A stretch of 64,000 nt of DNA. Origin: Macrostomum lignano (Eukaryota). The stretch covers positions 124,001 through 188,000 of the forward strand of contig NIVC01000013.1 of assembly GCA_002269645.1 (NCBI GenBank). Direction: 5' to 3'. The first letter of the stretch is position 1; every line of letters starts with the position of its first letter. Below, one piece after another: positions 19,903-46,013 of the stretch. The translations under genes were made by a program, and so were the position numbers. The notes under the pieces are model-generated. The model did no database searches and was not told the DNA's origin. It was given only the letters and a program-made list of their open reading frames with translations.

Positions 19903-20829
19903 AAGAAATCATTTTCAATATTATTGACTGTATTTTTTATAAGCACCTATTTAATTTTTAGTTAAAAATTTTTATTGCTTTCTATTAGTCATAATTTCCT
20001 CCTGAATTTTACTTGTTCTATTAATACCTTAATTTTTAATGTTCATACACAAGAGCTGATCAATTAGCTTTCAAAAGCTGGCAAATATTTGCATGCATTA
20101 GCGAGATAGAAACTCTATTATATTGAAAGAAAAAATCTGTAAAAAAAATTTTAATGTAGCAATAGGTTAACAAAAACTTAATTAAGCTTTAAAATCTGTT
20201 GCTTAATAGTTTTTAACTGCTTTTTTAAACATGAGTATTTCTTCAATATAATTCATTGTACGTTCTTGATAATACAATATACCATCTGAAATAAATTGTT
20301 ATGATTTGAGTTAAACAAAACTGCCAATTGTTGACTGGCATATCCATATTATCAGTTTCATGGATTTCTGGTCCAATCGTCATATTCCTTTCCGCCGTAA
20401 AGGATGATTAAGAGATCAATTATGTCGTATTTTACTAATAACTGGATACTTATGTTACTTCGTCATAAAAAAACCAGAGAAATTAAGGTGAAACTGCTTT
20501 GTAACGTTCATAATGAAGGTATCAGTTCATTTTGGCAACAAACTTTCCGGCAATATATGACAAGAAGTAAAATTTTAAACAAATTGCTGTGTTTCATGTT
20601 TTTTGCCTCCCGTTTTGCAAGCTTACTGTTTGACCGTATTTTGTTATCTGACGGTAGAATCTCTTTGTTGCAATGTTTGTCTTGCAGTGCCAAATACTCT
20701 CTTTACTCACAATCGCTTTGTCTTAGCCAAGGCATTAAAGGAAATGAAATTATAACTGATAATAACTATCATACGTGGTCTGTCGCCGAAATGCTTATCA
20801 CTGAAATGGTTGTTAGCAAACACATCATC

Positions 20830-20986
20830 AAAGTATTTGAGCAATCTCAACAATCTCAATGTATCAAGCATGAGATGTCTGTGGGCCATACTCCCAAGCA
20901 GAATGGAGTTGCAGAGCGAATGAACCGCACACGAGAAGAATCAGCCAGAACCATGATCGCTCATGCTAAGCTCAGCAATGCGTACG
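20830..20986 (+). mobile_element. Ty1/Copia integrase remnant, left half
   Basis: IKHEMSVGHTPKQNGVAERMNRT..ARTMIAHAKLSNAY matches the Copia TPQQNGVAERMNRT motif. Confidence 0.85.
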
Positions 20987-21575
20987 AGTAGTAGGAAAAT
21001 GGTACAGTTTGGCGAACGTCGCTGATTGGCTGACTGGCCAATCAGCGAGGGGGAGCCAATCAGTGATGAGGAGGCCCCGAAGGCGGGGTGGGGCAGGCCG
21101 GAGGTGGGGCAGGCCAGAGGTGGGGTCGAGCAGGCCAAAGGTGGGGTCGGGCAGGTCGGATGAGGGGTCGAGCCAGCCTAGGGGTGACCCAGAGGTGGGG
21201 AGCAGGCTTAGATGAGGGGTCGGGCAGCTAAGTGTCTGGTAAGTGTCCATTGGTAAGTGTCCTCTACCGCGTGTGGTGACACGGAAGACAGTTTAATGTT
21301 ATCGGTCAACGGGTTCGTGTCTGTAAAGGGTCCGATTGCATGGAATTTCCGAGTAGAGGGGTATTGTGAGGGAGGAGATTCTATTGGTCCAGAAAGCATT
21401 TTAAGTGATTTCCTCGGAATTTCCGAGTATAATGTGGGGAAGGGATTGTATTGGTCGAGAGGTCCTGTCGGTCCGAGCACGATTTGGTTGGTCAACACAC
21501 CCCGCAGGAGAAAGGGTCCAGTACCCTTTATAAGCAAAGCACCTTGCGCTCGCTAAGCTTCATGCAATTTTTAAA
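20987..21575 (+). repeat. Polinton left TIR
   Basis: Inverted homology to ~30270-30815 (GC-box sub-repeats, GTGTGGTGACAC, GGAATTTCCGAGTAGAGG, ATTGTATTGGTCGAGAGGTCC). Confidence 0.9.
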
Positions 21576-22090
21576 ATGAATTTTTTTCTGATAGCGTTTA
21601 AAGAACTACTACATGGTTATCGCATCAGCCTGGTGCCGGACACACAAACCATCAGTATTAGAAAGTGGTTCAAGTCTGACGACGAGGATCATCGGCCAGG
21701 TCTGCCCGGCATGGAGCTCACCACCCATCAATTCCGACACCTGGCCAGCTTGACCAAGCGCTTGGAGGAGTTCGCTGACAGGAAACTCGATGCGCAATGG
21801 CTTCTGGGTGGCAACAGGCAAGTGGTGGTCAAAGATGGTGCAATCTCACGCTGGCGCCCGTACTGCACTTGAGACACGCCCTGTCGCTACCAACTGAGCA
21901 ATGGCGACAGCTGTGGCAACACAGGCAATGAATATTGGAAGAACTTGAAGGACCAGCCAACCCGTGGTGGCTCGGAAACTACCCATCGGAGCCCGAAGAG
22001 TGCGCGGAGTGGGCGTCAAAACTCTCGATGGACCAGCTAGTGATGTGGCCAGAGACGCAGCCAGCAGAGTGGGATGACCATTGAGAGGCA
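21576..22090 (+). pseudogene. Tandem PC4/Sub1-like (ssDNA-binding, coactivator fold) gene, frameshifted
   Basis: ISIRKWFKSDDEDHRPGLPGMELTTHQFRHL aligns with PC4 [26 protein letters not shown]. After a frameshift near 21850 a second repeat reads HALSLPTEQWRQL. Confidence 0.7.
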
Positions 22091-22458
22091 TGACAGGCAG
22101 TCCAGACCGAGTTCCAAAAACGCTATAAGCCATCAGCGGAGTCCAGCCAGCAAGCTGAAACTCCCACGCCATCAATGAAGCGCGCGCGCAAGAATTGACT
22201 TTCTCTCACTGTAAATAGTTGTTTCGGGCCATAATACTGCCCATGTGTTTTTATGCTTTGATTCGGGGCGATAATACTGTTTTGTAAATACATGCGACGA
22301 GCCTTAATGCTGCCCCTTTTGTTCTTCATTCATCTTACCACGCGAAAACATTGTATTGTATTATTTTAAAAACTCAAAAAGTGTATTTTACAGAAAAGCA
22401 TTTTATAGTAATATTAAATGATACAGGGCTCACTACTGCTGTTATGCCGTTAACGAGC

Positions 22459-23028
22459 TCAGTCAGAGTCCGGCAAAGTAGGCTCGGATGCTTGGTCTGC
22501 ATACAAAATGCGGAAGAGGGTATCAGCTGCAGTCTGAGCCTCAACCACGCTGCAAGCACCAGCTATATACAGCGATATGAATGAAACAAAAATCAACTTT
22601 ACAGAGACAGTTAACTCGAGCACAAGCCCATTTAACATTTTCGGCTCGTAGGTACCCCACTTAGACTTGACTTCCCTCAACCGGAGTGGATGGCGACCCG
22701 CGAAAAAGGCCGTCACAGAGGTAATAGTCTTGATGCGAATCTGGGGCAGACTGGTCAATCGCAAGAAGTCCGCACACAGCCTCACAATCTTCTCCGTCTC
22801 TGCGAGAGCCTCCTCCATGCTTTTGGCTCCACAGACAGACACTTGTCCAGTCGGATACACCAGCGCGGTTACTTGATGCTGCTCGCTCTTCATCACCACT
22901 GCCAGTGTTCGAGGATGAACCAGGCGATGGCGGATTGTGTGATACTGAGGCAGATGAAGAGTCAGGAAATTCGCTAGTTGTGACAGAGCCACCCGGGTCG
23001 CCAGATCGGCTCCTGTTGTTGCGACCAT
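22459..23028 (-). CDS. Divergent TATA-binding-protein (TBP)-like protein, 189 aa, intronless
   Basis: Both TBP repeats are visible: AVVMK..VTALVYPTGQVSVCGAKSMEEA vs TBP AVIMR..[22 protein letters not shown], and YEPKMLNGLV..LIFVS..LYIAGA vs YEPELFPGLI..LIFVSGKVVLTGA. Length equals the TBP core. Confidence 0.85.
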   Translation of the reverse strand: MVATTGADLATRVALSQLANFLTLHLPQYHTIRHRLVHPRTLAVVMKSEQHQVTALVYPTGQVSVCGAKSMEEALAETEKIVRLCADFLRLTSLPQIRIKTITSVTAFFAGRHPLRLREVKSKWGTYEPKMLNGLVLELTVSVKLIFVSFISLYIAGACSVVEAQTAADTLFRILYADQASEPTLPDSD

Positions 23029-23074
23029 CTTTAGACAATCGATAGTAATGTCAGTGTGTGCTGCAGATCGCTAC

Positions 23075-23083
23075 TTTTTTATA
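23075..23083 (-). promoter_or_regulatory. TATA box upstream of the TBP-like ORF
   Basis: TATAAAAAA on the minus strand about 50 nt before the ATG at 23028. Confidence 0.5.
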
Positions 23084-23089
23084 GACCCG

Positions 23090-23661
23090 TAGCCAATCAG
23101 CGTACAGCGCCACCTTGGCCAGGGCGCAGGGTAGCACGTACTTTGAGGCACTCGGAAATGCCATGTGTGCTAGGTCGTAGACAGGCTGTAACAGCAGGCG
23201 CGACAGGAATGGCACTTGACATCCCCTTAGCTGAATATCGGGCCTTGCAAGTGAGAAATATCGCTCCAGAGACAAGAGTAGGGTCGGAACCCACTCCAGT
23301 CCCAGTCTAGACCGGAGGCTTATTGGTGAGCCAGTAGCAGGTACGTTCGTCGCTGTCCTCTATCAAAGAGCTCAAAACTGTGCGGCGACCGGTAGCAATA
23401 GTAATGAGCCGTCGTTTGAACGCATGCAAACTCAACCGATGCAATTTCCTTAATCAAAAAGTCCTCTGTTTTGTAGAGGTGCGGAAATCCTTCAAAATCA
23501 ATGACAATTTGACCACTTTTCTGAGACTGCGTCTTCTTATAGTCTTGCAGCCAAGGCTTTTTCGGACTACAATTTTCTTCCCGGGGCTTTTCCAGCAGTT
23601 TTGTTACTACCAACTGCAGACAGAGGCACGTTGTTTTCCTGAAGACACGTAACAAACGCAT
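23090..23661 (-). pseudogene. DEDD-type exonuclease-like Polinton ORF, disrupted
   Basis: IVIDFEGF...FLIKEIA...YRSPHSFE...SGLDW, then stops and a frameshift; C-terminal PCALAKVALYADWL lies in another frame. Confidence 0.55.
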
Positions 23662-24510
23662 TACGTATGTATTATGTAAAGTACGTATCTTTAACTATGA
23701 AATTCAGCAGGTCCAGCAGGCTCAGCATTTCAATAGTTTAAATTCAGTATTGAAATGTATTTCAATAGGGATTTTCACTCGAACTTGTGCATGAAAATTG
23801 ACGCATGTTGTCGAAGAATTCACGGCATATTGCGTGCTTTAAATCACTGTGGACGAAAACTTACATAATTGTTCACAAAACATGTATTTCAAAGGGGATT
23901 TTAACCTGAACTTATGCATGAGAATTTACTCATTATGACAAAAATATTAACATGAAAGAGCATTTTCTCTACTGCAGCGTATTGAATATCATGAGTAAAG
24001 CATCTGTATATTTTCAAAATATACTATGGTTGTATTAAATATGCATATACTGCTTAAATCACAAAAAACGTTTACAAAAAAATTAGGAAAAGTGTTGCAA
24101 AATATTAATGTTGTAAAAATTGTCCAATTAAAATCAATCAGACGGGCAGGGGCGCTTTCGGGACTGCAGACGGTAGTGGCCGTAGGGTAGACTCTCGTTG
24201 GCGGAGATCCAAGCGCGCTTGTCCTCCAATGAGAGCGCGCTTGAGAGTGGCAACTGTTTACAGCTCATGCCGCTCACTGGCGATGCCACAGATCAAGTAA
24301 TATAGCTAGACGGCGCATGCGGATGTTCCCCACACTAAGGGGTGCGTGTCTTGTTTGTCATAGAGGAAATGGCACCCTTAGTTTTCCTTCCCCGATTGAT
24401 AATGTAACAGTGGGATAGTGGGATGCCCCTGGCCTCCACGCAGTTCTTCTGTCTAAAATCTCATCAAGCGCACATATGGTTGTACTGACTGCTAAGTACA
24501 AATGAAATGC

Positions 24511-25826
24511 GATACTGAAAGTTTTGAGATACGGCTGACTCATAAGTCACAACTGCACAAATTTTTATGTATGCATACTCTACTACCCTTAAGATGATTG
24601 GGTATAAATTTTCAGTGTTTGCGCTCTCGTCGATTTTTCACAATCACTCTTTAAAGTCAATACCCCCTACCAAACTGTACTTGCTCCAATAAAGTTGACA
24701 AACAGCGACTTTCGTGCCATGATAGTTTACGACCAGCGAAAAGGTCTCACGCAGGAACAGTGCGTTGAAAGTTTACGTGCTGCTTTTGGAGACCAAGCCC
24801 CTTCACGTGCCACAGTTTTTCGGTGGTACAGCGAATGTAAGTGGGGCCGAAGCAGCCTTGATGACGTGCCTCGGACGGGACGTCCAGCTTCCGCAGTCAC
24901 TGACGAAAACATCGCTGCTGTCCGAAGAATGATTGATGAGGACCGGCAAGTGACCTGTGCAGAGATCAGAGAGGCTCTCGGCATTGGATCGGCAGCGGTT
25001 ACAACCATCCTGCATGACAAGCTGGGAGCCTCCAAGCGGTGTGCCCGCTGGGTGCCCCACAACCTGACGGAAGACCAGAAAGCGGAGAGGGTGCGTTGGT
25101 GCGAGTTTATGCTCGAAGGATTCAATTTTGGGACCTTAAAGCGACGCTGGAAGATTAGACAGGAGATAAGATGAGACAGGTGATGAGACCTGGGTCTACC
25201 AGTACGACCCGGAAACCAAGCAGCAGTCGGCAGTTTGGCTCCTCCCGGACGATGCCACCCAACGAAGGTCAACCGGTCCGCAGTGTCGGGGAGCAGATGG
25301 TGGCGACTTTCTTCAGCCAGGCTGGCCACTTGGCAACTGTAGCGCTCCAAAACAGACGGACAGTCAATGCCGACTGGTATATCAACCAGTGCCCGCTGCT
25401 CGTGTTCGATGCGTGGCGCAGACGCCAGCCGCGCACCGGACTTCGTGGCCTGCTGTTGCACCACGACAATGCCAGTGCGCACACGGCTGCTGCAACATTG
25501 GCATTTCTGGCCGAGAATGGAGTCCAGTTGGTGACGCATCCCGCTTATTCCCCTGACCTGGCACCCTGCGACTTCTTTCTCTTCCCTTTGGTGAAGAACC
25601 AACTGCGTGGGACTCGGTTTAAGAGCCCTGAAGCAGCAAGATTCGACTTCGAGCGGGTGGTGTCAGCAGTGCCAGAAGAACAGTGGGCTGGAGCCTGGAC
25701 GCAGTGGTTTCACCGGATGAGGAAATGCGTACAAGCTGGCGGCAACTACTTCGAAAAATGTTGGCAGATATTTGCTTCAGACATTTGTGGTTTCGATGTA
25801 TCTCAAAACTTTCAGTATGCCCCTCG
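24511..25826 (+). mobile_element. Mariner (DD34D) transposon with frameshifted transposase
   Basis: HTH region, WVPHNLT, TGDETW (split by a small duplication near 25165), HHDNASAH, YSPDLAPCD with 34-aa D-D spacing. TIR ATACTGAAAGTTTTGAGATAC at both ends, right end CCCCTCG-TA; the left TIR lacks its outer ~9 bp. Confidence 0.92.
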
Positions 25827-25890
25827 TATATGGTTGATGAATTAAGAAAACTGATGAATGTGTAGCGAAAAATTATTCAATCAGCCTACC

Positions 25891-27165
25891 ATGCAGCAAG
25901 CTAATAAGCCAGGAAACTGTCACTTCTGCACAGCATTTGGTTGTAGCAACAGTGCCTCAAGTTCGTCAGCAATCTCATTTCACTCCTTCCCGAAGGACAA
26001 TGATGTTAAGAAAAAATGGATAGCTGCTCTCAACCGCAAAGATTTCAAACCCTCTGAGCACTTTACTCCAGTGTTTTGTGCAACCTGTAGAAGGATTTCG
26101 GCCATTGGAACGGAAGCGACTCTATCCAGAAGCAGTGCCCTCCATTTTTCCCATTTTCCCGAGTAATTTGAGTAGCACTCCTGCGAAGACGAGAAAGACA
26201 ATGACTTCGGCTGCTGCTGGCCAAATCGACTTCTCAAACTTCATCAAAGATGCAGAGAAAAATGCGCCCTGACAGCTGGCTGAAGAGGAAAGTGCAACCT
26301 CGGATCAGCCTCAATCTGAGGCCGCACCCGCTGATGACTGCTACCAAAACTGTGTCAGTAAGGAGCTGCTTAACAAGAAAGTGAAGGCTTTGAAAAATCT
26401 TCGGTGCCGGTACAGGAGGCTTACACAGGCAAGTGACGATTTTAAAGTAATGACCCGTTCTTTGCAACCTGCGCGTGAGCAACTGGAGAGAAAATATAGA
26501 AGAATTCGCCGTCTGCGGTCCAATAATTCGCGCTTAAAAAGTAAGGCGAAATCACTGCTTCAGCTGATCACGTCGCTAAAGGGACAGAATATCCTTTCTA
26601 CAGCTGAGGCTTCGCGACTGAACTTTCTGGCATCCAACTCTCTTCTTAACAGTTTGGTGTCCCAGAAGAATTCGCGCTCAAAGAAATTCTCTCCTGAGGT
26701 TTGCCTCGACATTGCACCTTTACAGTGCAAAGGCGTACCAGTATGTCCGTAAATACTTTCAACTTTCTCATCCTGCTACACTTCGCCGATGGACATTAAA
26801 TGTCAAATGTCTCCCCGGATTTTGCGAATTATCTTTCCAAGAGCTTTTAAGACGACGCAACTCGCCTGGTGCAGAAGCATTTGCCTACTGTAATGTGGTG
26901 GCAGATGAAATGTCGCTTTAGAAGCTGATCGAATGGGATTCCTGTGACAGCAAGTTCTTTGGCTACGTGGGCAAGGGCGACGGAGCAGTGACTGAAGAAA
27001 AGGCCACCTCTTCGCTTGTAATTATAGCCGTTGGACTCAAAAGTAACTGGAAGCTGCCCCTTGGTTACTTCTTAGTCAATGGCGTCTGTCCAATGTAATT
27101 AATTGAAGAGGCAATTGCACGCTTGTATCAGATTGGCATTATTGCGGAATCTTTCATGCTAATTT
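25891..27165 (+). mobile_element. THAP/P-element-type transposase, 3'-truncated pseudogene
   Basis: THAP: CTAFGCSN..FHSFPKD..W..AVPSIF; core: DEMSL*KLIEWD..FFGYV..NWKLPLGYF. Confidence 0.85.
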
Positions 27166-27213
27166 TTTTGAGAACATGCATGATATGAATTATATAGAGT
27201 GCACATGAATAAA

Positions 27214-30200
27214 TTAGCCAGACAGTATAGGGTGCTTAATGCTTCCATAAGGGCAGCGCCAGTGGGCGATGCGCCTGGTCAGCCACCTCTTCTCCACAAG
27301 CATGTCAAAAGTCTCCCTGTGGTCCTCCCTATGGGAGATGTCGTTTTTGACCACAGCCCGCTGAACGCCCTTGGCTTGTCGCTTGTCCTTACCAGCAGCT
27401 GAGGATGCAAAGGAGTACAGCTTCGAACGCAGCAAAATCCACTCCTGGCAGTTGGCCACGCCGTCACTCTCATTCTTGACACACCCCAGTTGGCCTTGCG
27501 CTCGTTGGAGAACAGAGGGTGGTCCTTCGGCTAATTGGACGTATCCAGCAGGAGCAGACCCTTGCCGCACAGCTCTGGCAGAAACCAGCCATCTGCATCT
27601 GGATTCTCGAGGTGAAGAAAAAACGAATCCGTGTCACCACCGAGCAGTCGCAGCATTGCATCGGGCTTCTGTTGCACCAGAGGCTTCAGGTGCCGGTGCC
27701 ACAGCTCATACATGATGAGCTTGCTATTGTCCAGAACTCACTGGCCGATATACACTGGCTTGTTGAGCACAACCTTGTGCACAAGCATGTGCACTAGAAC
27801 TAGATCCTCGCTGAAAGTTACCTGCTCACGGAACGTCGGCTTGGCCACAAGCTTTTCCAATTTTCCTGTTGAATTAACCAGGCGGTAGTCCACTCGCTTG
27901 CGAACATTCTCCATGGTCTTTCCAGACAGGGAGTTGTTTAGCAGCTTGTTGTAGTCCTTCTTGAACACATTCTTGGCCTTTACACGACGCTCGCTGTTCC
28001 GAGGAAATATGGCTCAAAGATGTGCCCCTGCTGGAAGCTCAAGACTTTGTGGACCTTGTTCAGCCACATGTCTTGGCGCAGATAAAACTAGAATTTTTGC
28101 ATGGGCTGTGTATTGCACCTTGTCATGGCACGTCAGCAAGAGCTTTAGACTGTTCGACCTATACTCTTGACCCACCTGCCCACACCGGTCGATCAGGACA
28201 CCCCACAGCTGCTGCTGGTAATCGGGCATCCGAGGTAAGCGGCTCCTTCTCGGGAGCAAATGGGAGGTCAGCCGTCTGATCATGAATCTCCTTTGGATCG
28301 ATCGATATCAAATCTACCGTAAGGATGTATCCAAGATCACCTTCCGGATCGAACTCTTCTAAAAGTCAGTGTTCCACCTGCTCAGCAGAGTCAAAAGCTA
28401 CGAATATGAAGTCATGCCGCGGCAGCTTCGTGGACAAAGCATGACCGTAAAGATTGTTTGCGTCGACTGGGATAAGGTGACACTGAGGTCGTTCTGGGTC
28501 AAATCCGTCAACAAGACCAGCATGGTTGGCCGTCGAAATGTGTGAGTTGACAAAAGTCATGCCACCACGAGTACCATCTTCAAACATGTGGTACATTTCC
28601 GGGTCGTAAAGGAGTTCCAACTCGAGATGGAAAAACTTCAGTGCCGCATCGAACGACATGCCAGGCGTGGTAATGTAATGCACCGGGTCGAGACCATCCA
28701 AAGTTAGACTCGTGTGTCTAAAGGCCTCGAAGACATCTGCGAGTTGGCGAATATCCATCTCGAGATACGCGAGCATGTAGTCCCGCATGGACTCACACTC
28801 GAACTCCCTCCAGGCCCTGTGAGCAGTAGCGTAATCCTTGTTGGAGTAAGCCTCTCCCGTGAGAACATTTCTGAATGCCTCTTGTGGGGGCGGCTGAGTA
28901 TCGCGCAGCCTCTCCACACTGGTTGTATAGGAGTAAGGAAATACACCCTTTTGCAAGAGAATGTCCTCAGAGACTCATGGGTAGCGCTGCTGCATAGCCA
29001 GCGTATGGGTGCAGCAATCCCGCTCGAGGTTCTTCAACAGCTGAGCCAGGCTACTTGCCGTGAACTGATACGAGTCGAGAAAGCGCAATCGCATTAACTT
29101 GCGTACCCAATTGTCTGCTCCAGCATCGAAAGCCTCCTCCACCATGATGCGGGCCACTAGTGTCATGTACCGCTCCTTGGTCTAGGCGATGACACAGCTC
29201 CCAGTTCTTCTTGCGACCAATCGCTGTGTTGCATAGCAAATGCATGTCGTAGCCGCGAAGATTGTGGAAGGAGACTGGCAGCGGGTCCCGCATGGGAACG
29301 GCCGCATCGTTACACTCGGGGCAGGATGCGACGAATAGCTTGCCGTTCAGATGGTCATGGAGAGGTGCCGAGAATCATTGACTGACTGGTCGCACAAGCA
29401 GCACCGTGTAGCACTTCGTAACCTTTCTTCCTCCTCAGGAGGTCGGAGGGCCTGCTGATGGCTGCAGCGCTTATTCCAGTGATAGGCCTTTACTGCAACA
29501 CCTTCGAGGGCATCAAGAAATCGAATCATGCAGGCATCGCCATCTTCGCCGGCAACCCTGTGCAAAAGCATTAGCGGTTCCTGATAGGCCGATTTGACGA
29601 TCAGGATTTTTTTAATGCCATCGTCAATGTGGAGAAACACCAAAACGCATACTTAAGGCAATCTGCCCCGTTTGAGTAGGAATTAATTACTGCTTTTTTA
29701 CCTTTAACTAGGCTGGCAATTAAAACTTTGCTGCTCCCTGCGGTAGATAATAAATAGCGGTCAACACATCAACACACCGAGTGGTCCTGATTACCCAGCC
29801 ACTGCCATTGCGTAACTACTTCTATATCCGGCTGAGGATAGTCTGCATGTCGCTAGAGAAATAGTGCTCCTCCTCGCTCCGGAGAAGAGAGTGGGCCTTG
29901 GCAGCAAACCAGGCGGTGTTCTCGGTGGCGCAGCTACCATTAATGATACGCTGCATCAGGACACCGAGGCGCAGCTGAACCTTGATGGCGGTTCCTGGCT
30001 CACGTTGATGCTGAGTGATCAAGTCAATGAAAGCTTGACGAGTGTTTTCCAAGACATTCCTCGGGTCTCCGCATGCACTGGCCCTGTAAAGTCGGGACCT
30101 GCCACTAAACGCCTCCTTGATCAATTGGAAATGTATCCTTGGGGAGGCCTCTTCGTCTGACTCAAATAGTGCTGGTATTGCGGGGCACAACGCATAGAGC

Positions 30201-30253
30201 TCCTCAATGCCTCCGACTACTGATGACTCGCAGAATTCGCAAGTTATTGGCAT
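27214..30253 (-). pseudogene. Protein-primed family B DNA polymerase (Polinton pPolB), multiple frameshifts and stops
   Basis: KKAVIN, C-x2-C before the exonuclease region, FHNLRGYD, RFLDSY, KGVFPY, TPGMSFDA, RGG, DANNLYG, KLLNNSLSGKTMEN, GDTDS, KGV..VVK, PYG, all in the expected order. Confidence 0.95.
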
Positions 30254-30269
30254 TTTTATGTTGTATTTT

Positions 30270-30815
30270 ATCTAAAAAACCTATGGGGTGCAATGCATCT
30301 GGGTGCTTAGTTTATAAAGGGTCCTGGATTCAAATACTGCACGGAGCACCAGGGACCTCTCGACCAATACAATCCCATCCCCATAATACTCGTAAATTCC
30401 GAGAAAATCAGCACCCTTCTAAATGCTTTCTTGACCAATAGAAGCCTTTCCCCCACTATATACCTCTACTCGGAAATTCCAAGCAATCGGACCCCTACAG
30501 ACTGATTACATTGAAACTCTGTCTTGCGTGTCACCACACGCGGATAGAGGATACTCACCAATGGACACTCACTCAAACTCACCCTTGGACACTCACCGGA
30601 CACTCAGCTGCTCGACCTCTCATCTGGCCTGCTCCCCACCTCTGGGCCTGCTTGACCCTACCATGGCTGATCGACCCCTAGGCTTGCCCTTCCCTCGGTC
30701 TGCCCCCGCCTCTGTCCTGCCCCACCTCCGGCCTGCCCCGCCCCGCCTCCTTGATCATTGATTTGCCCCCCTCGCTGATTGGACGTGCGCCAGACTGTAC
30801 CGTTTTTCTACTACT
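30270..30815 (-). repeat. Polinton right TIR
   Basis: Reverse complement of the left TIR; ends CTACTACT. Confidence 0.9.
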
Positions 30816-30998
30816 CGTACGTAAGCTATCAACACAGCGGCATATGTTCAAAATTCAGTTGTGACATCCGCTTAAGTTACTGATAACTCCGTTTGAAATG
30901 TGGTACGAAACGAAGTCAAATGTAACGTCCTTTCGAGTTTTCGGTTGTACAGTATACGCTCACATATCAAAAAAACGACGGAAATTTGACGAGAAGAG
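30816..30998 (+). mobile_element. Ty1/Copia integrase remnant, right half
   Basis: AINTAAYVQN..TPFEMWY..FRVFGCTVYAHI..KFDEKS continues the left fragment colinearly. Confidence 0.85.
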
Positions 30999-30999
30999 C

Positions 31000-33480
31000 T
31001 TCCGACTCAGCACAACGAGCTCAACCGCGTCGCAGTTCGACCCCTGCTTTTTACAGGAAGTCACCGGAGATCTGGTTTAAGCAGCTGGAGTCACAATTCG
31101 CGCTCGCCAACCTCACCAGCAGCTCCATCAAGTACTATTATGCTTTAGCAGCCCTCCCAGTGGACATCACGTGCGAACTCAACCTCGACGGCAACGACTA
31201 CGACGCATTAAAGGCAGTGGGTGATAGCCTGTGTGCTAATCGGCATCAGCTAATCGAGGAAGCCATTTCCGCCGTGGAACTTGGTTTTTGGATCCCAAGC
31301 CAACTTGTCAACGAGATAAAACTTAAATTTACCTAGGTCGGCCTGAGGTAAACGACGTCATTGTCAAGTCATGCCTCATCTTTGCGTTGCCGTCCCACAT
31401 TCGCTCCGCACTCGTCGGACATGGGCACAGCACAGCCCGCTGGATAATTTTGCCAAGATCGCGGACAGCATGCGGGCAATGGCCGGCCGGCCCTCACCAT
31501 TCACCGACATCAATCAGTTTTCCACTGTTGCTAATGCAGAGCAGCAACTGGCCCGGCATTTCTCCCGGTGACCCGACCCTCCGGCTCACGACGCCCAGCC
31601 TCGCAGATGGCAGCGACCACTCGTTTGCAATTCGCACATCTATGCCGGCAGGGCTCGAACTTGCCGTTCCTGGATCAAGTGGCCGGGTCAAAAGCCATCG
31701 AAATCGCTCCGCCAAGGTCAGTGCCAAGTGTCTCCCACGGCCTCGCCGATCCCAAACGAGTGTCATGTGCAGCGGCCGGGCCACCTATCGTTTCCACTCA
31801 AATACTAAGTTCCTGTTTCATTCCTCGTTGATACCGGTGCGGAAAAGTCCTTACTGCCTCCATGTTTCGTTCCGTTTAACCTCGTCACCCCCTGTAACGT
31901 TCAGCTTCGCGGGGTCAGCGGGCACAACGTCTGAACCCAGGGGAAATGCAACGCTTTGTTTTCGGTAAAGGGTTTACGTCGCACCTTTCAATTCAAATTC
32001 ATCGTCGCAGACACAGTCCCCATTCTCGGATCGGATTTTTCGGTTTATGGTGGTACGAGATGGCCAAGTCAGAATTTGACAAGCTGCATCGATGGGCATC
32101 GTCCGCCCGTCCTGCAGCCCTTGGGCGTCACCACTCTATATGGTGAAGAAAGCCGACGGATTGTGGAGACCCTGCGGGGGACTACCGCGCTATGAACAGC
32201 GCGACGGTGCCGGACAGGTACCCACTACCGCACTTCCGGGATTTTCACCACCAACTTCGTGGCACCAACGTTTTTAGCAAATTAGACTTGCTCAAGGCCT
32301 AACATTTCAGACCAGTCACCAAGGATGACATTTCCAAAACAGCAATCTGCACGCCATTCGGTTCTTTTGAGTACGTCCGGGTGCCATTCGGGTTTCGCAA
32401 CGCCGACAACATATTTCAATGCTTTATCGATTCGATGTTCCGAGACCTGACCTATGTCATCACATACGTTGGCGATATACTGATTCACAGCAAGTCAAGG
32501 GTAGACTATCACAACGACATTTAGATCGTGCTGCAATGCCTACACAAAGAGGGTCCCCGAGTTCAACCCGCAAAATGCCAGTTCTTTCAGATTAGCCTCG
32601 GATCATTGGTCATTTAGTCTCTAAAGACGGAATCCAGCCACTACCATCCGACCTCCGGCACCGGCATCACCTCCGGCAGACTTCAAGAGCCTTCAGCGCG
32701 TCCTCAGCATGTTCCGTTTCTACCAGCACCACATTCCGAAACACGCAAGCATTGTGCAACCGCTGCGATCCTCACCGAAATCGATATCATTGGTAAGCCG
32801 AACATGATGCCGCTTTCTGAGAGCTTCAGGATAGCCTAGCAGCAATGGTAACTCGCCATCCCGACCTAAACTGGCACATTCACCATCACGTCGGATGCAA
32901 GCTCGTTCGCCTTGGGCGCCTGTTTGCACTAGAATGAAGATGGCGATTCGGTATCCATTGTGTTCTATTCACGGAAACTTACCAAAGCGAAAACGGCATA
33001 CAGCGCGTTTGATCATGAACTTCTAGGCATGTTCGCCGCTGTCAAGAACTGGCGACACATCATTCACGACCACTCCACGACCGTTTTTAGCGACCACAAG
33101 CCGTTAGTCGGTGCTTTCAACACCAACAAGGAGCGCCTATCCGATCGTCAGCTGCGCCAGTTGGCCACCATCTAAGAATATGTGATCGACATCATTCACA
33201 TCCCGGAAGCCAAGACCGTGGTCGCCGATACCTTATCTCGAGACACAGTCAAGCCTGGTGAGCACACAGTGAACACTGTTCAATCGGAAGATTGCAAATA
33301 TTGCCGTTACCCGCAGATTTCCCTGCGCTCGCCAAGGCACAGCGAGAAGCGGGGCTCACGAGCAGTGACCGTTACTGCCCATTCGAAGTCGGGTTATCAG
33401 ATTGTCCTATGTCCTGCGAAACTTCGCAACCAAACCCATACCAGAGCAAATGCGCCGTCAGATTCTACTAGCACTGCAGG
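31000..33480 (+). mobile_element. Degenerate Ty3/Gypsy element (CsRn1/Kabuki-like gag-pro-RT-RH)
   Basis: gag PAFYRKSPEIWFKQLESQF; protease FLVDTGAEKS; RT SPWASPLYMVKKADGLWRPCG, TPFGSFEY, YVGDIL; RH FYSRKL..HELL..SDHKPL; many stops. Confidence 0.88.
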
Positions 33481-35218: not shown

Positions 35219-36403
35219 ATGGCCTTCGAGCCGTCTATGGATAATCAAGCTAACTCTAGGGACGGGGACCCTTCTAAACCCCAACCTCAGTCCGAAGGAC
35301 CGGCCGGCCCTGCTGGCAGATCCCAACTGACTGATTCAACTGTGGCAAAGGAAGGACCGGCTGGCTCTGCTGGCAGATCCGACCAGAGCTACCAAACTCA
35401 AAATACCCAAAGACCTGCCAGCTCCGCTGGTGGATCTAAGGGAACCGCGAGCTCTGAGTCTAAAGGACCGGCCAAATCTGGCAGATCCGATGAAGCTCAG
35501 CGGGCTCGGCTTGAGCGCAAACGCGCTAAACAACGCGCCAAAAGGCAGGCCAAGAAGGGAGCTGCGGGGGCCAAAGCGGCGGCGTCCACCATGGATGCTG
35601 AAGCGACTGGAGTCCCAAGGCAACCAGGCGGGCCGGCCGGTGGAAGCTCCAGTAGTTCAGCGGCGGCGCTCCCTGGAGCTGCTGCCGCGGCTGCTGAGGC
35701 CGAAACCACGGCGCAACAAATGGCCACTGCCAACAAGGAGGTTCCTTCGGGAGCTACCTTTGCGGCGAAGGCCAAGGCCAAAATCCCGGGAGTGATCATC
35801 CAAGGTCGCGACCAGGACTGGACCACTGATCAGCTTCAAAAAGTGTGGAGTGCTGTTGACTCCTATCTGATTGAGCTGACTGTCGAGGAGGGAATCTCCA
35901 TCGGCATTGAGCGGATGGTGCTGCGAAGCGCATTCGTTCTTATTGCTCCTAGCAGCGAGGAGGACGCTCGGCAGCTGCTCCAGCGGCTACCGACGGTCTC
36001 CTTGGATGCTGACCTTGGCGGAGCTCTTTTTCTTCGCGAGGGCCAGCGTCCAAAGACGATACCCTATGTGGTTTTCGTCCCTGCTAAGAGCACCGCAGCT
36101 GGACCAGACGTTATTTGCCGGGTCCTACTGCGTCTGAACCCCGACCTCCCTGCTAGTGGACTGGTGTATCACCGTAAAGTCCGCAGGGGGGAGACGGGCA
36201 ACTCAATTGTCCTCGGCCTTTCCAGCACTTGGGCGAGTCGGTACCCTAATGGATCCTCTTTCCAGCTGGGTGCCCTCAAGCTCAAGATGCGCCGAGGAAA
36301 GTCTGCGGGGCGCAGTCTAAGGCCCAAGGAAAGGCGCAAGCCGATCCCAAAGCCAAAGCTGCATCTCGCCCCTCTGCTAGCAGCAGTTCGGCGACCGCGG
36401 TAA
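35219..36403 (+). CDS. LINE ORF1 (probably continues to 36696 via a frameshift)
   Basis: Long ORF upstream of ORF2 with low-complexity N-terminus, basic RLERKRAKQRAKR segment and globular C-terminal half. Confidence 0.75.
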   Translation: MAFEPSMDNQANSRDGDPSKPQPQSEGPAGPAGRSQLTDSTVAKEGPAGSAGRSDQSYQTQNTQRPASSAGGSKGTASSESKGPAKSGRSDEAQRARLERKRAKQRAKRQAKKGAAGAKAAASTMDAEATGVPRQPGGPAGGSSSSSAAALPGAAAAAAEAETTAQQMATANKEVPSGATFAAKAKAKIPGVIIQGRDQDWTTDQLQKVWSAVDSYLIELTVEEGISIGIERMVLRSAFVLIAPSSEEDARQLLQRLPTVSLDADLGGALFLREGQRPKTIPYVVFVPAKSTAAGPDVICRVLLRLNPDLPASGLVYHRKVRRGETGNSIVLGLSSTWASRYPNGSSFQLGALKLKMRRGKSAGRSLRPKERRKPIPKPKLHLAPLLAAVRRPR

Positions 36404-36719
36404 CGGCTCCGGCCAAGCCCCGGGAACCAAACCTGCCAGTCGGAGAAGGAGTTGAGGACGAGGCCGGGTCTTCGGAATCCGAGCTCTCCTCGGCCACCCT
36501 GGTGGGGTCTGAAGGTAAAGATGCAGGTGAGGAAGCCTCCTCCATCCTGTCATCGGAGCCTGAGGACTCTGCTGGGGGGGCGGTGGGGGTGAGGAGGCCA
36601 TGGACGTCGACCAACTCCCATCTCCCAGTCAAGCCCCAGCGGCCTGGGACGAGGACGATCTGTTGTCCAAGTCTCCTTGATGGCCCTGGGCTCTAGCCAG
36701 AAATTGCATTTAATACAGT

Positions 36720-39700
36720 ATGACTAAGCTCCACGCTGCCAAAGGAGCGACATTCTGTCTGCAAATTAATTTACAGCATTGCGTATCTGCGTCAGTAAAT
36801 CTGATGAAGATTGCTGAGCTGTACAGGCCAGGCCTCATCCTGATCCAGGAACCCTGGATGCGCAACGGTAAGTTGCCCAACATTCCCTCTGGCTACTCTG
36901 ATTTTTATGTGTGTGGCCCGGGGAAAAGCCGCCCTAGAGCGGCTATCCTCGCTGCTAGCCATCTCCAGGCTTGGCTGAGGACTGATCTCTCTGATGGAGA
37001 CCTTTGTGTCATCCAATCTAATCATTTCTCTCCGCGTACGTGTCTTGTTGCCTCGGTTTATATCCCAGGCGACAGAGACCCTGCTCCTGAGAGTTTACTG
37101 CGCCTCGCGCAGTACTGCGAGTCCCAGAACGCTGAGCTGTGCTTAGGGGGCGACCTCAACGCGCACCACAAGCACTGGGGCAGCAAATATACCAACACTA
37201 GAGGAGAGGAGCTTCTGGCCCTCGTCTCTAACACAAACCTCATGCTCTGCAACCGCGGCAGCACTCCTACCTTTAATAATGGCAGATGGACCGAGGTCCT
37301 CGACGCCACACTCGTTACCCCAAGACTCTTTGACAGAGTTGAGGAGTGGAGAGTCTGGTCTGAGGAGCCCTCCCTGTCTGACCACTGCTTTATCGCCTTT
37401 AACATCGCGGACACTAAAACCCAGTCTCCGATCACTTGGAGACGCAATATCCGCAACACTGATTGGGCGGCCTACAAGGCTGCCCTTGATCTGCACCTGC
37501 AGGAACTCACGGACTTACGTCCGATTGAGACCTGCGAGGATGTGGATCATATGGCTGAGACGCTGACAGGTTGCATTATTGAAGCCTACGAAGCGGCTTG
37601 TCCTGCTCGCGCCTACAAAGGCAAGACCTCGGCGCCGTGGTGGAACCCGGAGCTGGGGAAACCCAGGCGGAAGGCCAAAAGCCTTCATCGCCGTGTCATG
37701 AAGACCGGAAACCCGGAGGACATGGAGCTTTTCCGGCAAGCCTCCCGCAATATCAAATCTGAAGTGCGCAAGGCCAAGGAATGTAAGTGGCGCCAATTCT
37801 GCAATGAATTGGATCAAGACAGACCTACTTCTAGGCTTGTCAAGGCCCTTACAATGGACAAAATGTCCAAATTAGCCATGATCAAAAAAGATGATGGCTC
37901 TCTTACTAAAGACCCTGAAGAAGTGCTTCAGCATATGCTTAGCACATTCTTCCCGAGGGTACCTACTGCTAGACCGGAGCCCAACCATTCGATGGATGGA
38001 GCCACCCTAGCGGCGGGCATTGTCACTGAAGACCTAATCGCTCGTGCGGTCAGAACCTTCAAACCCTTCAAATCTCCTGGACCTGATGGTATCTACCCTG
38101 TTCTCCTTCGTGAAGCAGCCAAGATACCCTCGTTCCTGAGACTCACCCGCAATCTTATGCGGGACTCTATCCAGCTGGGATACGTTCCCAAATGCTGGAC
38201 TGAAGCTCGGGTAGTCTTTATTCCCAAACCTGGGAAGGGTGACTACCAAAGCGTCAAGGCCTTCCGGCCTATTAGCTTAACGTCAGCAATGCTTAAGCTC
38301 ACTGAGAGGCTTATTCTCTGGCGGCTGCTGTCCTGCGAGCTGACAGCGATGCCCCTCAGCAATAATCAGCACGCCTTCCGTACCGGGAGGTCGACTGACA
38401 GCGCCTTGCATGCGATTGTCGAGAAGATTGAAAGGGCGGTACTGGGTGACGGTTACACTCTGGCTCTCTTTCTTGACATTGTTGGCGCCTTCGACAACGT
38501 TATCTTTGAAGCGTTTCAGAGGGCCCTTCAAAATCGCAAAGCTCATGCTACCCTCATACGGTGGATCATGTACATGATCTCCAACCGTACGGTCACTGCC
38601 CAACTTCTTGGGCAAACTGCCTCCACCAGAGTCTGTAAGGGTGGACCCCAAGGCGGAGTCCTCACCCCGACGCTCTGGAACCTGGTCATGGACGCTCTTT
38701 TGAGTGACTCCCGACCCGACCCCGTCTTCAAAGTCGGGTATGCTGATGACGTCACGGCCATTGTGGCAGGACCGTCTCCCAGCACGCTCAGGGATCTGAT
38801 GCAGAGCTTTATCCGCAAAGCAGAATCCTGGGCCAATGACAATGGTCTGGAACTCTCTGAGCCCAAAACCGTTGCCATTATGTTTACCAGCAGACTACAC
38901 TGGAACATACGTCCTCTGCAGCTCTACGGTAGAGATATTGCCTTCGCGCACCAGACCAGATGTCTCGGGGTCATACTTGACCACCGGCTCAACTGGTCCT
39001 CCCACGTGAAAGCAAAAGCCAAGCGTGCCTCAGCCATCCTGGCCCAGCTCCGACGAGCACTTGGCACTTCTTGGGGTCTATCCCCAAAGCGGCTTTGGTG
39101 GATCTATACTTCCGTAGTTAGACCTGCCATTACGTACGCCTCTGTTGTCTGGGTTAGCGCTACCCAGGTCAAAAGACATGCAGACCTGCTCAACACGATC
39201 CAAGGCAGAGCGTGTAGGCTCATCTGCAACGCCACCAGGTCCACCCCCTTTGCTGGCATGGGGGCCTTCCTTAATCTTCCGCCTCTTGACCTCTTCATCA
39301 GGGGTGAGGCGGCTAGAACGACGCGGCGTCTAATTGATGCCGGCGTCAAATTCATTTACATGAGAGCACCTGCTAAGCGGAACCTTGTCCCGCATGGCGA
39401 TCTGTGCCTCAACTTTCTCAACGAGTGTCAGGCCAATCGCGTCTTCACCGACGGCATTGCCTCAACGCTCAACCTGAGACAGCGCTACTCCGTAGCTATC
39501 GACTCGCGCGATAACATCAATGACCATTGGAACCCTGGTGAGCTTCATTGCTACACCGACGGTTCTAAGCAGTCAGCCAACACCGGCTTTGGTGTTGGAA
39601 TCTTTCTGAACGGGAGGGTCATCGTTACCCACGCTCAATACACTGGGGTCAACTCCAGTGTTTTCCAAAATGAAGTTCTGGCCATCAGCTCCTGCACTGC

Positions 39701-40178
39701 AGAGCTTCTCGCCACTGGCGTTACTGGTAAGAACATCATTTTCCATTCGGACAGCCAAGCTGCCTTGCACGCCATCAGTGGCTGCAGCACCAACTCTGCT
39801 ACAGTCCTTGACTGTATCAAACTCCTCAATGTGTTGGGTTCCGCCAACAAAATTACCCTTAAGTGGGTTCCGGGGCATGTGGGGATCCGAGGAAATGAGT
39901 TGGCTGACACCCTTGCAAAAGTTGGTGCCTCCGGCTCCTCTCTCGGCCCCGAACCTCTTGTCCCGATTCCTGGCTGTGTCATCGACTCGCGCATCAAAGC
40001 GTGGATCAGGACTCAGCACCGCTCGACTTGGGCGAACTGCACTACCTGCAGGCAATCCAGAGGCGCTGTCCCTCAGCCCTCTCACCAGCTCCGGAAGCTC
40101 CTCTTGCGCCTCTCGCGCAGAGACATCCGGGCTGCCACCATGACCCTCTCTGGTCACGGCTGCTTCTCCAGGCACTAG
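36720..40178 (+). CDS. LINE ORF2: APE endonuclease, RT, RNase H (premature stop before the CCHC finger)
   Basis: QINLQH, LIQEP, GDLNAHH, SDH (APE); PGPDG, FRPISL, PQGGVL, YADD (RT); YTDGSK, SDSQAA, WVPGH..GNELAD (RNase H). In frame after the TAG: CSFC..ETAEHFVSIC, to a stop at 40452-54. Confidence 0.95.
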   Translation: MTKLHAAKGATFCLQINLQHCVSASVNLMKIAELYRPGLILIQEPWMRNGKLPNIPSGYSDFYVCGPGKSRPRAAILAASHLQAWLRTDLSDGDLCVIQSNHFSPRTCLVASVYIPGDRDPAPESLLRLAQYCESQNAELCLGGDLNAHHKHWGSKYTNTRGEELLALVSNTNLMLCNRGSTPTFNNGRWTEVLDATLVTPRLFDRVEEWRVWSEEPSLSDHCFIAFNIADTKTQSPITWRRNIRNTDWAAYKAALDLHLQELTDLRPIETCEDVDHMAETLTGCIIEAYEAACPARAYKGKTSAPWWNPELGKPRRKAKSLHRRVMKTGNPEDMELFRQASRNIKSEVRKAKECKWRQFCNELDQDRPTSRLVKALTMDKMSKLAMIKKDDGSLTKDPEEVLQHMLSTFFPRVPTARPEPNHSMDGATLAAGIVTEDLIARAVRTFKPFKSPGPDGIYPVLLREAAKIPSFLRLTRNLMRDSIQLGYVPKCWTEARVVFIPKPGKGDYQSVKAFRPISLTSAMLKLTERLILWRLLSCELTAMPLSNNQHAFRTGRSTDSALHAIVEKIERAVLGDGYTLALFLDIVGAFDNVIFEAFQRALQNRKAHATLIRWIMYMISNRTVTAQLLGQTASTRVCKGGPQGGVLTPTLWNLVMDALLSDSRPDPVFKVGYADDVTAIVAGPSPSTLRDLMQSFIRKAESWANDNGLELSEPKTVAIMFTSRLHWNIRPLQLYGRDIAFAHQTRCLGVILDHRLNWSSHVKAKAKRASAILAQLRRALGTSWGLSPKRLWWIYTSVVRPAITYASVVWVSATQVKRHADLLNTIQGRACRLICNATRSTPFAGMGAFLNLPPLDLFIRGEAARTTRRLIDAGVKFIYMRAPAKRNLVPHGDLCLNFLNECQANRVFTDGIASTLNLRQRYSVAIDSRDNINDHWNPGELHCYTDGSKQSANTGFGVGIFLNGRVIVTHAQYTGVNSSVFQNEVLAISSCTAELLATGVTGKNIIFHSDSQAALHAISGCSTNSATVLDCIKLLNVLGSANKITLKWVPGHVGIRGNELADTLAKVGASGSSLGPEPLVPIPGCVIDSRIKAWIRTQHRSTWANCTTCRQSRGAVPQPSHQLRKLLLRLSRRDIRAATMTLSGHGCFSRH

Positions 40179-41450: not shown

Positions 41451-42062
41451 ATGCCCATTCGGCTTGCCAGTGGTGTTCGAGCTGAATTGACGCGAGATCC
41501 AGTAGACTTTTGCACTTTTTGACTTGATGACTTTATTTCATTAGTTAGTATTCACAATTTACAAGTCGTATATTCCAAGTACTAATTATTGACTTGCTTT
41601 TCATTGTTGGTGTGACTGCCCTGCCTATTGACGTCCCCAGGCGCGTAGCCAGGATTAAACATGGATGAATAATATAGCTGGATCGCCAGAAGCTCGATTT
41701 TTTTTGTCCTATCCATAGACAAGCACCAGCATCACAAGAAGCTCAGAATGCCGTACTTTTCGGCAAAGTGCCGTACTTAAAAAGAAGCAGCAGACAAAGC
41801 AACAGGAGCAACAGGAGCAGCAGACAACGCAACAAGAGCAGCCGCAACAGCAGCAGGAGAAGCAGGGATGACAGTTTGCGTTGTGCATTTTGACTGCATT
41901 TGGACTGCGTATGTTAGTTTTGTGCCGTACTCGTACTTTCACACATAGACAAATAGCCGCTGCAGAAGCTGCAAACCTTTATTTATAAGTATTCTACGAG
42001 CTATTTTATGTCCAAGCACATGCTCGCAATATATGCAGGGCGGCAAAAGATGGCTTCGCGAG

Positions 42063-43591
42063 ATGAATAAGGACGTCAGAATTTGTGCTGCAATCGGATG
42101 CCTATCCAAAAGTGGACAAGGCACGAAACCTGTCACCCTTTTTTCTTATCCAATCGGTGATCCGTATCGACTAGCGCAGTGGAACAGCAATGTGCAAGCA
42201 AAGCCACATTTCAAATTCGGAGCTCGTAAGTTTCTTTTGTGAGCTGCACTTCGAACAGCGAGACATGCAGGCTCATGGGAGGAGCAAGCGACTGATGACT
42301 GGCGCAGTTCCGAAGTTTAAGTGGACTAAGCTTGAACCGCAAGAGCTCACTGACTTCCACGATCCAAACTCTTATGCAAACGAAGCTACTGGCGACTGAG
42401 TTTGAGATGCCGATGCCTGTCAGTTGCAGCGCGGCAACCACACGCACATTAGTTGATCCACCACCAAACACCCGACAGCGCCTGTTGATGCGGCTGAAGC
42501 ACAAGAAGCGCACGATTAAGACTTTTGGTCCACGCGTTGCAAAATGGAAAAGTACCGAAGCGACCTTAAAACATGTAAAGCAAATGTTGACTTCTGAAGG
42601 TCTCAAGCTGTTTTCTTTACGACCACGAAATATCACAGGTGGTTTCAATAACCACGTCAAAGACTTCGCCGAGAGGATCAACTTCTGCTCTCCAAAAGCA
42701 TATCGAGAGTTTAGAAAATTCATGCACCTCCCTTCGCCGTCAACCTTGCGGTCTTGGATTGGAGCAGTGGATGGCAGGCCTGGCATTTCCATTGCTGGAG
42801 TCAAGAAGGTTGGAACCCTATCGAAACAGATCTTTGATGGCGTCGCTTGCAACGAATGGACTCTAGTCATTGATGGCATGCATCTTCGAAAGGAGTTGTG
42901 TTGGGAAGCTAGCGAAGGAAGAGTGGTCGGCTATTGTGACTCAGGGATCCATGAAAATCTAGGTCACAAACTTGTGTCTGAGGCAATCGTTGTCATGGCC
43001 TGCCATCTTCAGCGCCCGTGGAAAGTGCCAGTTGCGTACATTTTGGCCACTGCAACATCCCCGGTTCAACAAGTGGAGCTTTTGACGCGTACTATTAGCG
43101 CACTGAACGATGAGGGCGTCGTTGTACGCGCGCTCGTGTCGGACGGTTGCTCTGCGAACCTTGCGACGTACAGGAAACTTGGAGCTGAGCTGCCGTCTAG
43201 TCCTTATTTCCAAATCGGTTCGCAACCAGATCGCATATTCGCATTCATTGACAACAGTCATTTGATAAAGTTGGTGCACAATTCGCTGGCCGATTTGGGA
43301 GTATTCGTTGTTCACGATCGCATCATCAACTGGCACTATCTGGAACTATTGCACAATCTGCAAGAAGCTGAGGAGGTTCGAATCGGAAATCGGCTGACAA
43401 AGAAATGCATTGAATTGTGGCAGCGACACAAGATGAAGGTCTGCTTGGCTGCACAGACAATCAGTTCGTCCGTCGCTGACGCTCTCACATTCCTAAAGGA
43501 GCTTGGAGTTTCGGATTCCCAAAATTGTGATGAAACGGTCCGCTTTATTGCATTAATGGACCATCTGTTCGACATCTTCAACTCGAGGTGA
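42063..43591 (+). pseudogene. THAP-P-element transposase, 5' part
   Basis: THAP CAAIGC..W..CELHF..AVPKF (frameshift); core LPSPSTLRSW, IDGMHLRK..GYCD, WKVPVAY, SDG, HLIKLVHN, KMKVCLAAQTIS, DIFNSR, followed by a probable donor AG/GTGAGC. Confidence 0.9.
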
Positions 43592-43614
43592 GCCGGTATA
43601 TTAAACCAAAACAG

Positions 43615-44848: not shown

Positions 44849-44849
44849 C

Positions 44850-44867
44850 TGGTGGCAGCGGTGGGAT
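44850..44867 (+). promoter_or_regulatory. Primer binding site, tRNA-Leu type
   Basis: TGGTGGCAGCGGTGGGAT is complementary to the 3' end ATCCCACCGCTGCCA-CCA of animal tRNA-Leu(AAG/TAG) as recalled. Confidence 0.8.
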
Positions 44868-45084
44868 CCGGTAAAACGACCACGTCAATCCATCGTCCAC
44901 CTACGTCTTAGTCTCACTTAGTAATCATAGCAATGTCTATTGCCAGCAGTCGTGCTTCAATGGCACCACCTGATGATGGTGCTGGAGCTGGGGCTGAGGC
45001 ACCAGTACTAGGCGAACGTCTGGATCGGTCGCCGATGCACTGGAGCGCCAGCTTGGTATAGGCCAAGTCAGGCAGCATGTCAAG

Positions 45085-45903: not shown

Positions 45904-46013
45904 AGCAGTCTGGAGAGTCTGGCGATACCGTAGACTCTTCCTTTGTAAATAATGTATATAACTCTGGTGCTGATCCTTATGTAACTGCGCTTATTTTCGG
46001 CCAACAGGTTCCC

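Follow-up and report, generated by a model that had tools for sequence, protein, structure and literature searches.

TBP-fold genes are a fixed and selected component of several Polinton (Maverick) families in the genome of Macrostomum lignano. The window, i.e. the whole stretch of 64,000 nucleotides that was analysed (contig NIVC01000013.1, positions 124,001 to 188,000), carries one decayed copy, a fossil whose family appears to display a testable pairing of TBP and promoter box. The original prediction that a Polinton encodes its own TBP-fold factor is borne out by more than 100 ATPase-linked copies, by the TBP fold, by purifying selection and by a separate clade in the phylogeny. Judging from sequence patterns, the TBP of the element probably drives the late genes, similarly to the TATT-binding factor of herpesviruses.

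The Polinton copy in the window spans positions 20987-30815. It is delimited by imperfect inverted repeats of about 480 bp with approximate inner ends, the left one (20987..21465, plus strand) beginning with AGTAGTAG and the right one (30353..30815, minus strand) finishing with CTACTACT. The 6-bp target-site duplication CGTACG was found on both flanks (20981..20986 and, as an identical hexamer beyond the right end, 30816..30821). The TBP-like ORF is thus enclosed by Polinton termini, as predicted. The same hallmark, long terminal inverted repeats starting with AGT or AG together with a 6-bp target-site duplication, was detected in the window, C255 and C1157 elements. On the plus strand, a putative TATA-like box with a presumed function, TATAAGCA (21529..21536), lies 5' of a broken PC4-like gene (21576..22200, end approximate), which matched Pfam PC4 with an E-value of 7e-4, below the cut-off; the corresponding protein counts 231 aa in family copies. 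On the minus strand, the TBP-like ORF (22459..23028, 189 aa), still open but decayed, is preceded by a broken exonuclease-like gene (23051..23515; DEDD-type motif recognised by eye), which overlaps the TBP 5' region. A canonical-type TATA box, TATAAAAA (23076..23083, minus strand), is located 55 nt upstream of the TBP start, and TATAAAAG stands at the same site in the family copy L004. A further box read from the sequence, TATAAGAA (23534..23541, minus strand), lies 5' of the exonuclease-like gene and is the sole inner-gene box identified in the deleted window element; family copies have it at position -52. Of the conserved block gene that stands 5' of the exonuclease, here labelled PZ-like, a 3' remnant is left (23516..23715, minus strand), and the block deletion starts within it.

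Two remnants foreign to the Polinton are nested in the element, namely a mariner-type transposase (24719..25845, plus strand) and a THAP-domain transposase (25858..27150, plus strand, end approximate). They are followed by a broken gene for a protein-primed DNA polymerase B (pPolB; 27240..30253, minus strand) with a putative TATA-like box, TATAAACT (30309..30316, minus strand), 63 nt upstream of its start. The window pPolB matched PF03175 weakly, below the cut-off, while relatives display long open pPolB frames. The flanking pPolB, PC4-like and exonuclease genes had been described as disrupted, and all three are indeed broken. Genes for rve integrase, packaging ATPase, protease and capsids were all absent between 20987 and 30815, and the element is an internally deleted, non-autonomous Polinton copy. 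By eye, the surroundings of the Polinton insertion (20400-20980 and 30822-31000) read like a remnant of a copia-type integrase. Two further elements were recognised by eye at 35219-40178 and 41660-51251: a non-LTR retrotransposon that is open and has an RNase H-like end, and, inside a THAP/P-like transposase remnant, a gypsy-like one.

The window ORF matched Pfam TBP (PF00352) in two stretches with an E-value of 4.7e-14 and 52.4 bits (cut-off 22.9), in agreement with the proposed presence of both TBP direct repeats, and it matched solved TBPs at an E-value of about 1e-8. Its description as an intact ORF of 189 aa holds for the open frame on the minus strand (22459-23028) and fails for its integrity. 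Compared with family copies, a 21-nt deletion near 23016 takes out the first beta strand including a conserved Asn, a 9-nt deletion is located near 22658, and a brief stretch (about 22566-22592) is read out of frame. The view of this copy as intact or selectively spared is not supported. The out-of-frame stretch contains the residues LIFVS, to which the one retained hallmark Phe had been assigned. None of the four Phe is present at its homologous position, one of them being replaced by Tyr. Both C-terminal Phe, which are retained in undamaged family copies, and one stirrup Glu are missing. Prediction from the single sequence without alignment gave an uninformative model (pLDDT 51). Among the 30 closest loci, all three hallmark stretches of the protein of about 199 aa were found in 17, and the window type in three. 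We infer that the window's own TBP copy is non-functional now.

A genome search with the window TBP delivered 185 candidates; 150 of them were scored and 150 of 150 matched, about 40 being close pieces and about 110 showing 33-37% identity. The TBPs of the two families defined here, A and B, are about 35% identical. A TBP match was located 1-4 kb downstream and on the same strand at no fewer than 114 of the 137 ATPase loci listed, and at least 114 of the 153 TBP loci among the matches listed were linked to an ATPase; both counts are lower bounds. Pieces of the ATPase locus list were merged by hand. The host TBP and the TRF2-like gene were each recovered at three equal-scoring loci (L048-L054), suggesting duplicated chromosomes or haplotypes, which would inflate copy counts.

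In family A, for which C255 and C1157 are examples flanked by target-site duplications, the gene order is pPolB, integrase, penton, a small basic gene, major capsid, protease, ATPase, two small genes, exonuclease-like gene, TBP, and PC4 facing back. Family B displays an identical ten-gene block with the PC4 and pPolB ends exchanged. The order from integrase to TBP is common to both families, and TBP closes the ten-gene integrase-capsid block. In these parent families, Pfam matches were obtained for the integrase (PF00665), the protease (PF00770) and the P-loop of the ATPase; a search of the genome with PF04665 gave no ATPase match. The capsids had no informative Pfam match, and the capsid and small genes of both families are presumed to be such from position and likeness. 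A candidate third family at C414 turned out to be a family-A copy without TBP match. In one family-A copy (L057 and L004, C1277), the segment from the small genes to PC4 is inverted relative to the capsid genes. Two types of pPolB, about 89% and 66% identical to that of the window (27240-30270), occur in family A with different termini around the same gene block (C255, C1157), so that end modules have been swapped. A GT..AG intron of about 100 nt apparently interrupts the family-A integrase (L058, about 445-545, by eye), which would mean spliced nuclear transcripts. In both families, the exonuclease-like ORF remains open in a different frame over about 130 codons of the TBP gene (L004:1712-2590, minus strand; L034:3703-4557, plus strand); its nearest Atlas clusters are mostly arthropod, with a weak lead to Maelstrom.

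Selection was evaluated on eight family-B TBP copies, as the original prediction had proposed. The dN/dS ratio was 0.15-0.50 in 28 of 28 pairs, which are not independent of each other, and the family-B TBP gene is under purifying selection. A mosaic was observed in family-B TBP (L032-L043), with dS of 0.06-0.7 in the N-terminal half and of 1-3 or saturated in the C-terminal half of the same copies. This difference between the halves suggests recombination near mid-gene.

The family-A copy L004 matched Pfam TBP in two stretches with 68.2 bits (cut-off 22.9). Its predicted model (pLDDT 85) adopts the saddle fold with ten strands and four helices, and matched TBP structures at an E-value of about 1e-13 and a TM-score of about 0.7, one of the fold matches being a G(-26) variant TATA complex. 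Of the searches that had been suggested as a check, the profile search points to TBP for both the window ORF and L004, and the search with the predicted structure does so for L004. Viral TBP structures matched the family copy at an E-value of 1e-12 with at most 18% identity, cellular TBP structures being closer by identity. In the undamaged copies of lineage 1, i.e. the TBPs of families A and B, the equivalents of Asn69, Leu114, Phe190, Phe207 and the acidic stirrup are retained (yeast numbering). Phe116 is changed to Tyr, Val122 to Ser or Thr, Thr124 to Cys, and Asn159 and Val161 to Thr or a close residue; the equivalent of Phe99 is Pro or Thr, in an uncertain alignment register. In place of the canonical four Phe and central Asn/Thr pairs, the family copies display two Phe, the Tyr and one Asn. 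The loss of Phe99 and Asn159 could mean weak or no DNA binding. The acidic stirrup residues of TBP play a role in the contact with TFIIB.

The host genome carries its own TBP and TRF2-like gene, and the element TBP shows 23-31% identity to the host TBP. In an IQ-TREE analysis of 48 hand-picked rows with long branches, lineage 1 formed one clade (99/96) outside the clade of host TBP and TRF2 (96/81). A FastTree analysis of 153 rows (15 near-duplicates, fusions or fragments skipped and five rows dropped by length) also separated lineage 1 from the host. The element TBPs do not nest with the host genes in these trees. Polinton TBPs share the two-repeat saddle with cellular TBP and TRF2 (PF00352), but lack the N-terminal tail and form a separate clade.

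The motif WTAAGAA was found 5-160 nt upstream of 7 of 10 block genes in B1, 8 of 10 in B2 and 6 of 9 in A. Outside the gene-upstream zones it occurred 0, 1 and 1 times, and in antisense 0, 1 and 0 times, respectively; we read both stray sites, which lie at locus edges, as standing just 5' of the next gene. Binomial P values were 2e-5 (B1), 7e-6 (B2) and 1e-4 (A); B1 and B2 are related, and the values are optimistic because the motif had been noticed by eye beforehand in these very A and B sequences. Among all 6-mers, TAAGAA ranked second in B1 and first in B2 and A. The motif lies on the sense strand, mostly 30-110 nt 5' of start codons, and no like enrichment was detected elsewhere within the gene block. 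Its sites lie in each of the three frames of the upstream gene, at stop codons and between genes, and five of them entail the rare Leu codon TTA (6% usage), which argues that DNA rather than protein is constrained. A function as poly(A) signal was ruled out by sites located up to about 400 nt inside upstream ORFs, and a function as splice acceptor by several sites without pyrimidine tract (by eye).

Two inner genes deviate from this pattern: the protease lacks WTAAGAA wherever its start was scored (B1, B2, A), and so does the PZ-like gene in all three sets (B1, B2, A). The terminal genes carry TATATAAG, TATATAAT or TTTATAAA instead, and TATAAAAG stands before the family-A TBP gene. The family-B TBP gene stands behind an inner box in 14 of 14 loci and would need a starter. 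Taken as putative promoters, these boxes show that a variant TATA particular to each family is common to the inner genes (integrase, capsids, ATPase and others), and that pPolB and PC4 mostly carry ordinary TATA-like boxes. The split between early and late is blurred by the terminal PC4 gene of the window, which has TATAAGC, the inner box of a second lineage.

This second, very remote TBP lineage was observed in other Polinton families (L097:6242-6856, plus strand; L098-L105; L106). Its TBP-like gene gave 72 matches among 79 genome candidates. Four of five relatives scanned were at or over the Pfam TBP cut-off, L097 itself giving no match, and the profile probability against canonical TBP was 97%. 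The frames lack an initial Met and follow a pyrimidine-rich AG, a pattern suggestive of an intron. Genes for a deoxynucleoside kinase, a dUTPase and a phospholipase-A2-like protein are found in the neighbourhood. In L106, a full lineage-2 element, TATAAG, mostly as TATAAGC, precedes 6 of 9 starts, with one site elsewhere and one in antisense (P 5e-4); the unrelated 6-mer GGAAAG ranks level with this box, and sense WTAAGAA is absent. In the partial element L096, where only three starts were called, TATAAG was not significant (2 sites in, 5 out), all seven matches being on the sense strand. The Polinton L094/L095 has no TBP-like ORF in 17.5 kb, and neither WTAAGAA nor TATAAG was enriched in L094, a single, partial (17.5 kb) and AT-rich control element.

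The two lineages differ at a residue that is predicted to read the box. The equivalent of yeast Leu114 is Leu in 11 of 11 lineage-1 rows, for which box position 7 is A, and Gln in 6 of 6 lineage-2 rows, for which it is mostly C, a covariation of residue and box that rests on these two TBP lineages only. According to the accessible part of PMC13566119, the Leu which clashes with C or G at TATA position 7 is Arabidopsis Leu72; it corresponds to yeast Leu114 by a numbering offset of 42 from structure alignment. The equivalent of Val122 is Ser or Thr in both lineages, and both boxes have G at position 6, which Val122 should line by two-fold symmetry.

Outside of the genome, named protein relatives of the TBP were annotated as Macrostomum lignano proteins. 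Seven relatives from other data sets (P0001, P0003-P0006, P0008, P0009) are 29-63% identical to family A; they are sequences without genomic context and candidate Polinton TBPs. Scans of IMG/VR with two Polinton-TBP alignments and the host TBP returned 13, 25 and 7 pattern stretches and no confirmed relative. A metagenome scan yielded 26 loci of 22-29% identity, in none of which tblastn detected a Polinton marker gene, and the lineage-2 profile gave no protein match among 3236 candidates. Contigs from four runs guessed to be RNA cover 29, 15, 28 and 30 of the 30 bins of L005, a hint that the Polinton TBP is expressed. One X1 contig omits 297 nt at GT..AG directly behind the TBP stop (L005:2089-2387); this joint was absent from the genomic loci compared and is a possible 3' intron.

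In the proposed activation of late genes, host TBP would start the terminal genes and, in family A, also the TBP gene. The element's TBP would bind the variant box via the minor groove and, through its kept acidic stirrup, recruit host TFIIB and RNA polymerase II, and virion and integration genes would thereby be turned on. A single general transcription factor, captured by the element, would in this way control the passage from early to late genes. The original suggestion of an alternative TBP for the element's own promoters gains indirect support from the shared upstream boxes. With somewhat less confidence, at close to even chances, the face with which the single captured TBP reads DNA may have evolved, separately in each lineage, together with a private TATA variant (WTAAGAA in one, and TATAAGC in another in the same host) to form a minimal temporal programme.

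Host TBP could also read the boxes itself, since ordinary TBP accepts G at position 6 (PMC1636458) and all boxes at issue are structurally allowed for it, as far as the accessible parts of PMC1636458 and PMC13566119 go. The element's TBP would then be a decoy or repressor that sequesters TFIIB, TFIIA, NC2 or Mot1 of the host, or that lowers the transcription of host or early genes. This is rather unlikely, but it fits the binding of G6 boxes by host-type TBP, the G(-26) variant complex among the fold matches, and the loss of Phe99, Asn159 and Thr124 on the DNA-reading face next to two kept acidic stirrup residues. It does not account for boxes that differ between two TBP lineages in one host, nor for a change at Leu114 that tracks position 7, and lineage 1 retains Phe190, Phe207 and Asn69 as well as an aromatic side chain at 116. 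A service in replication or packaging, in which the TBP and the PC4-like protein would bend AT-rich DNA close to the termini and another factor would use the upstream motif, is improbable. The TBP gene does neighbour either PC4 or pPolB in both family A and family B, as well as pPolB in the lineage-2 loci L097 and L106, and the replication origin of KSHV also contains a site for its TATT-binding factor (PMC8360532, accessible part); against this, the motif is TATA-shaped, on the sense strand, mostly 30-110 nt before starts and not enriched elsewhere in the block.

Domestication by the host, which would keep the damaged window copy open as a TBP variant that does not bind DNA, has very little probability. 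Four indels in the window ORF jointly keep the frame, whereas the adjacent exonuclease gene has 7-8 indels, none a multiple of three, and in X5, which was guessed to be an RNA run, one contig terminates in the deletion junction of the window type. Substitutions among the three window-type copies (1 synonymous to 5 non-synonymous; 2.5 to 14.5) are, in these small counts, not of the purifying kind, and one other window-type locus shares its flank with the window copy, which makes it the same insertion. The window copy has lost its first strand, one stirrup Glu and the two C-terminal Phe, and it was selected for study because it was open. The least probable explanation, in which host TBP or TRF2 was retrocopied a single time into a Polinton and the motif is a by-product of Lys/Arg-rich protein ends, is largely refuted by linkage, selection, motif frames and the tree. 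Lineage-1 TBP genes are intronless, and several motif sites translate as L-R-K or Y-K-K in the upstream gene, but the motif occurs in three frames and between genes. An identity to host TBP of just 23-31%, the separate clade, more than 100 linked copies and purifying selection also speak against it.

Late-gene activation by the element's TBP has a counterpart in the herpesvirus late factor (HCMV UL87, KSHV ORF24), which recognises TATT in late promoters and brings in host RNA polymerase II (PMC8360532, accessible part; see also PMC6541308). A shared non-canonical TATA before structural genes, the trait of such a late-promoter switch, is present here as a sequence pattern. UL87 and ORF24 are large proteins of a six-member complex in large viruses. 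The Polinton protein consists of the TBP core alone (about 190-200 aa) and is encoded by a small element, and no set of partners was found for it: no such six-member set was recognised by Pfam among the block genes, two small ones of which have no family. Nucleocytoviricota and mirusviruses also encode divergent TBP folds. These TBP-bearing viruses are large and mostly have their own RNA polymerase, a gene seen in none of the Polinton stretches examined here. Mirusvirus-like algal elements contain TBP genes as well (PMC10675990, accessible part).

The elements described here share pPolB, rve integrase, ATPase, protease, candidates for the major and minor capsid proteins, AGT-type inverted repeats and 6-bp target-site duplications with Polintons/Mavericks as presented, in its accessible part, by PMC8502044 (adintoviruses). 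Full novelty of TBP in Polintons is not supported, since it is named in a figure legend on polinton-like viruses of that study (Starrett et al., 2021; preprint 10.1101/697771). In the accessible files, the main text has a single occurrence of 'TBP' with no mechanism given, and one supplement file has none. Relative to these files, what differs here is that TBP is a constant gene of several families integrated in an animal genome, and that each of its two remote lineages comes with a matching box upstream. TBP is not mentioned in PMC12220804. In the literature consulted, outside of which lie subscription papers and Repbase, no paper was found that treats TBP as a routine Polinton gene or ties it to a promoter box, and none on the switching-on of animal Polinton virion genes. 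No animal Polinton virions had been observed as of PMC8097293, in its accessible part.

A switch made of one protein and one box can be tested directly and cheaply. If true, it would show a virus-like gene cascade for an integrated element. It would also provide natural TBPs of altered specificity, or orthogonal pairs of TBP and promoter, and bear on the evolution of TATA recognition. Should the co-evolution of TBP and box hold true, it would be sequence-level evidence that these Polintons have a genuine lytic late phase for which no helper virus is needed.
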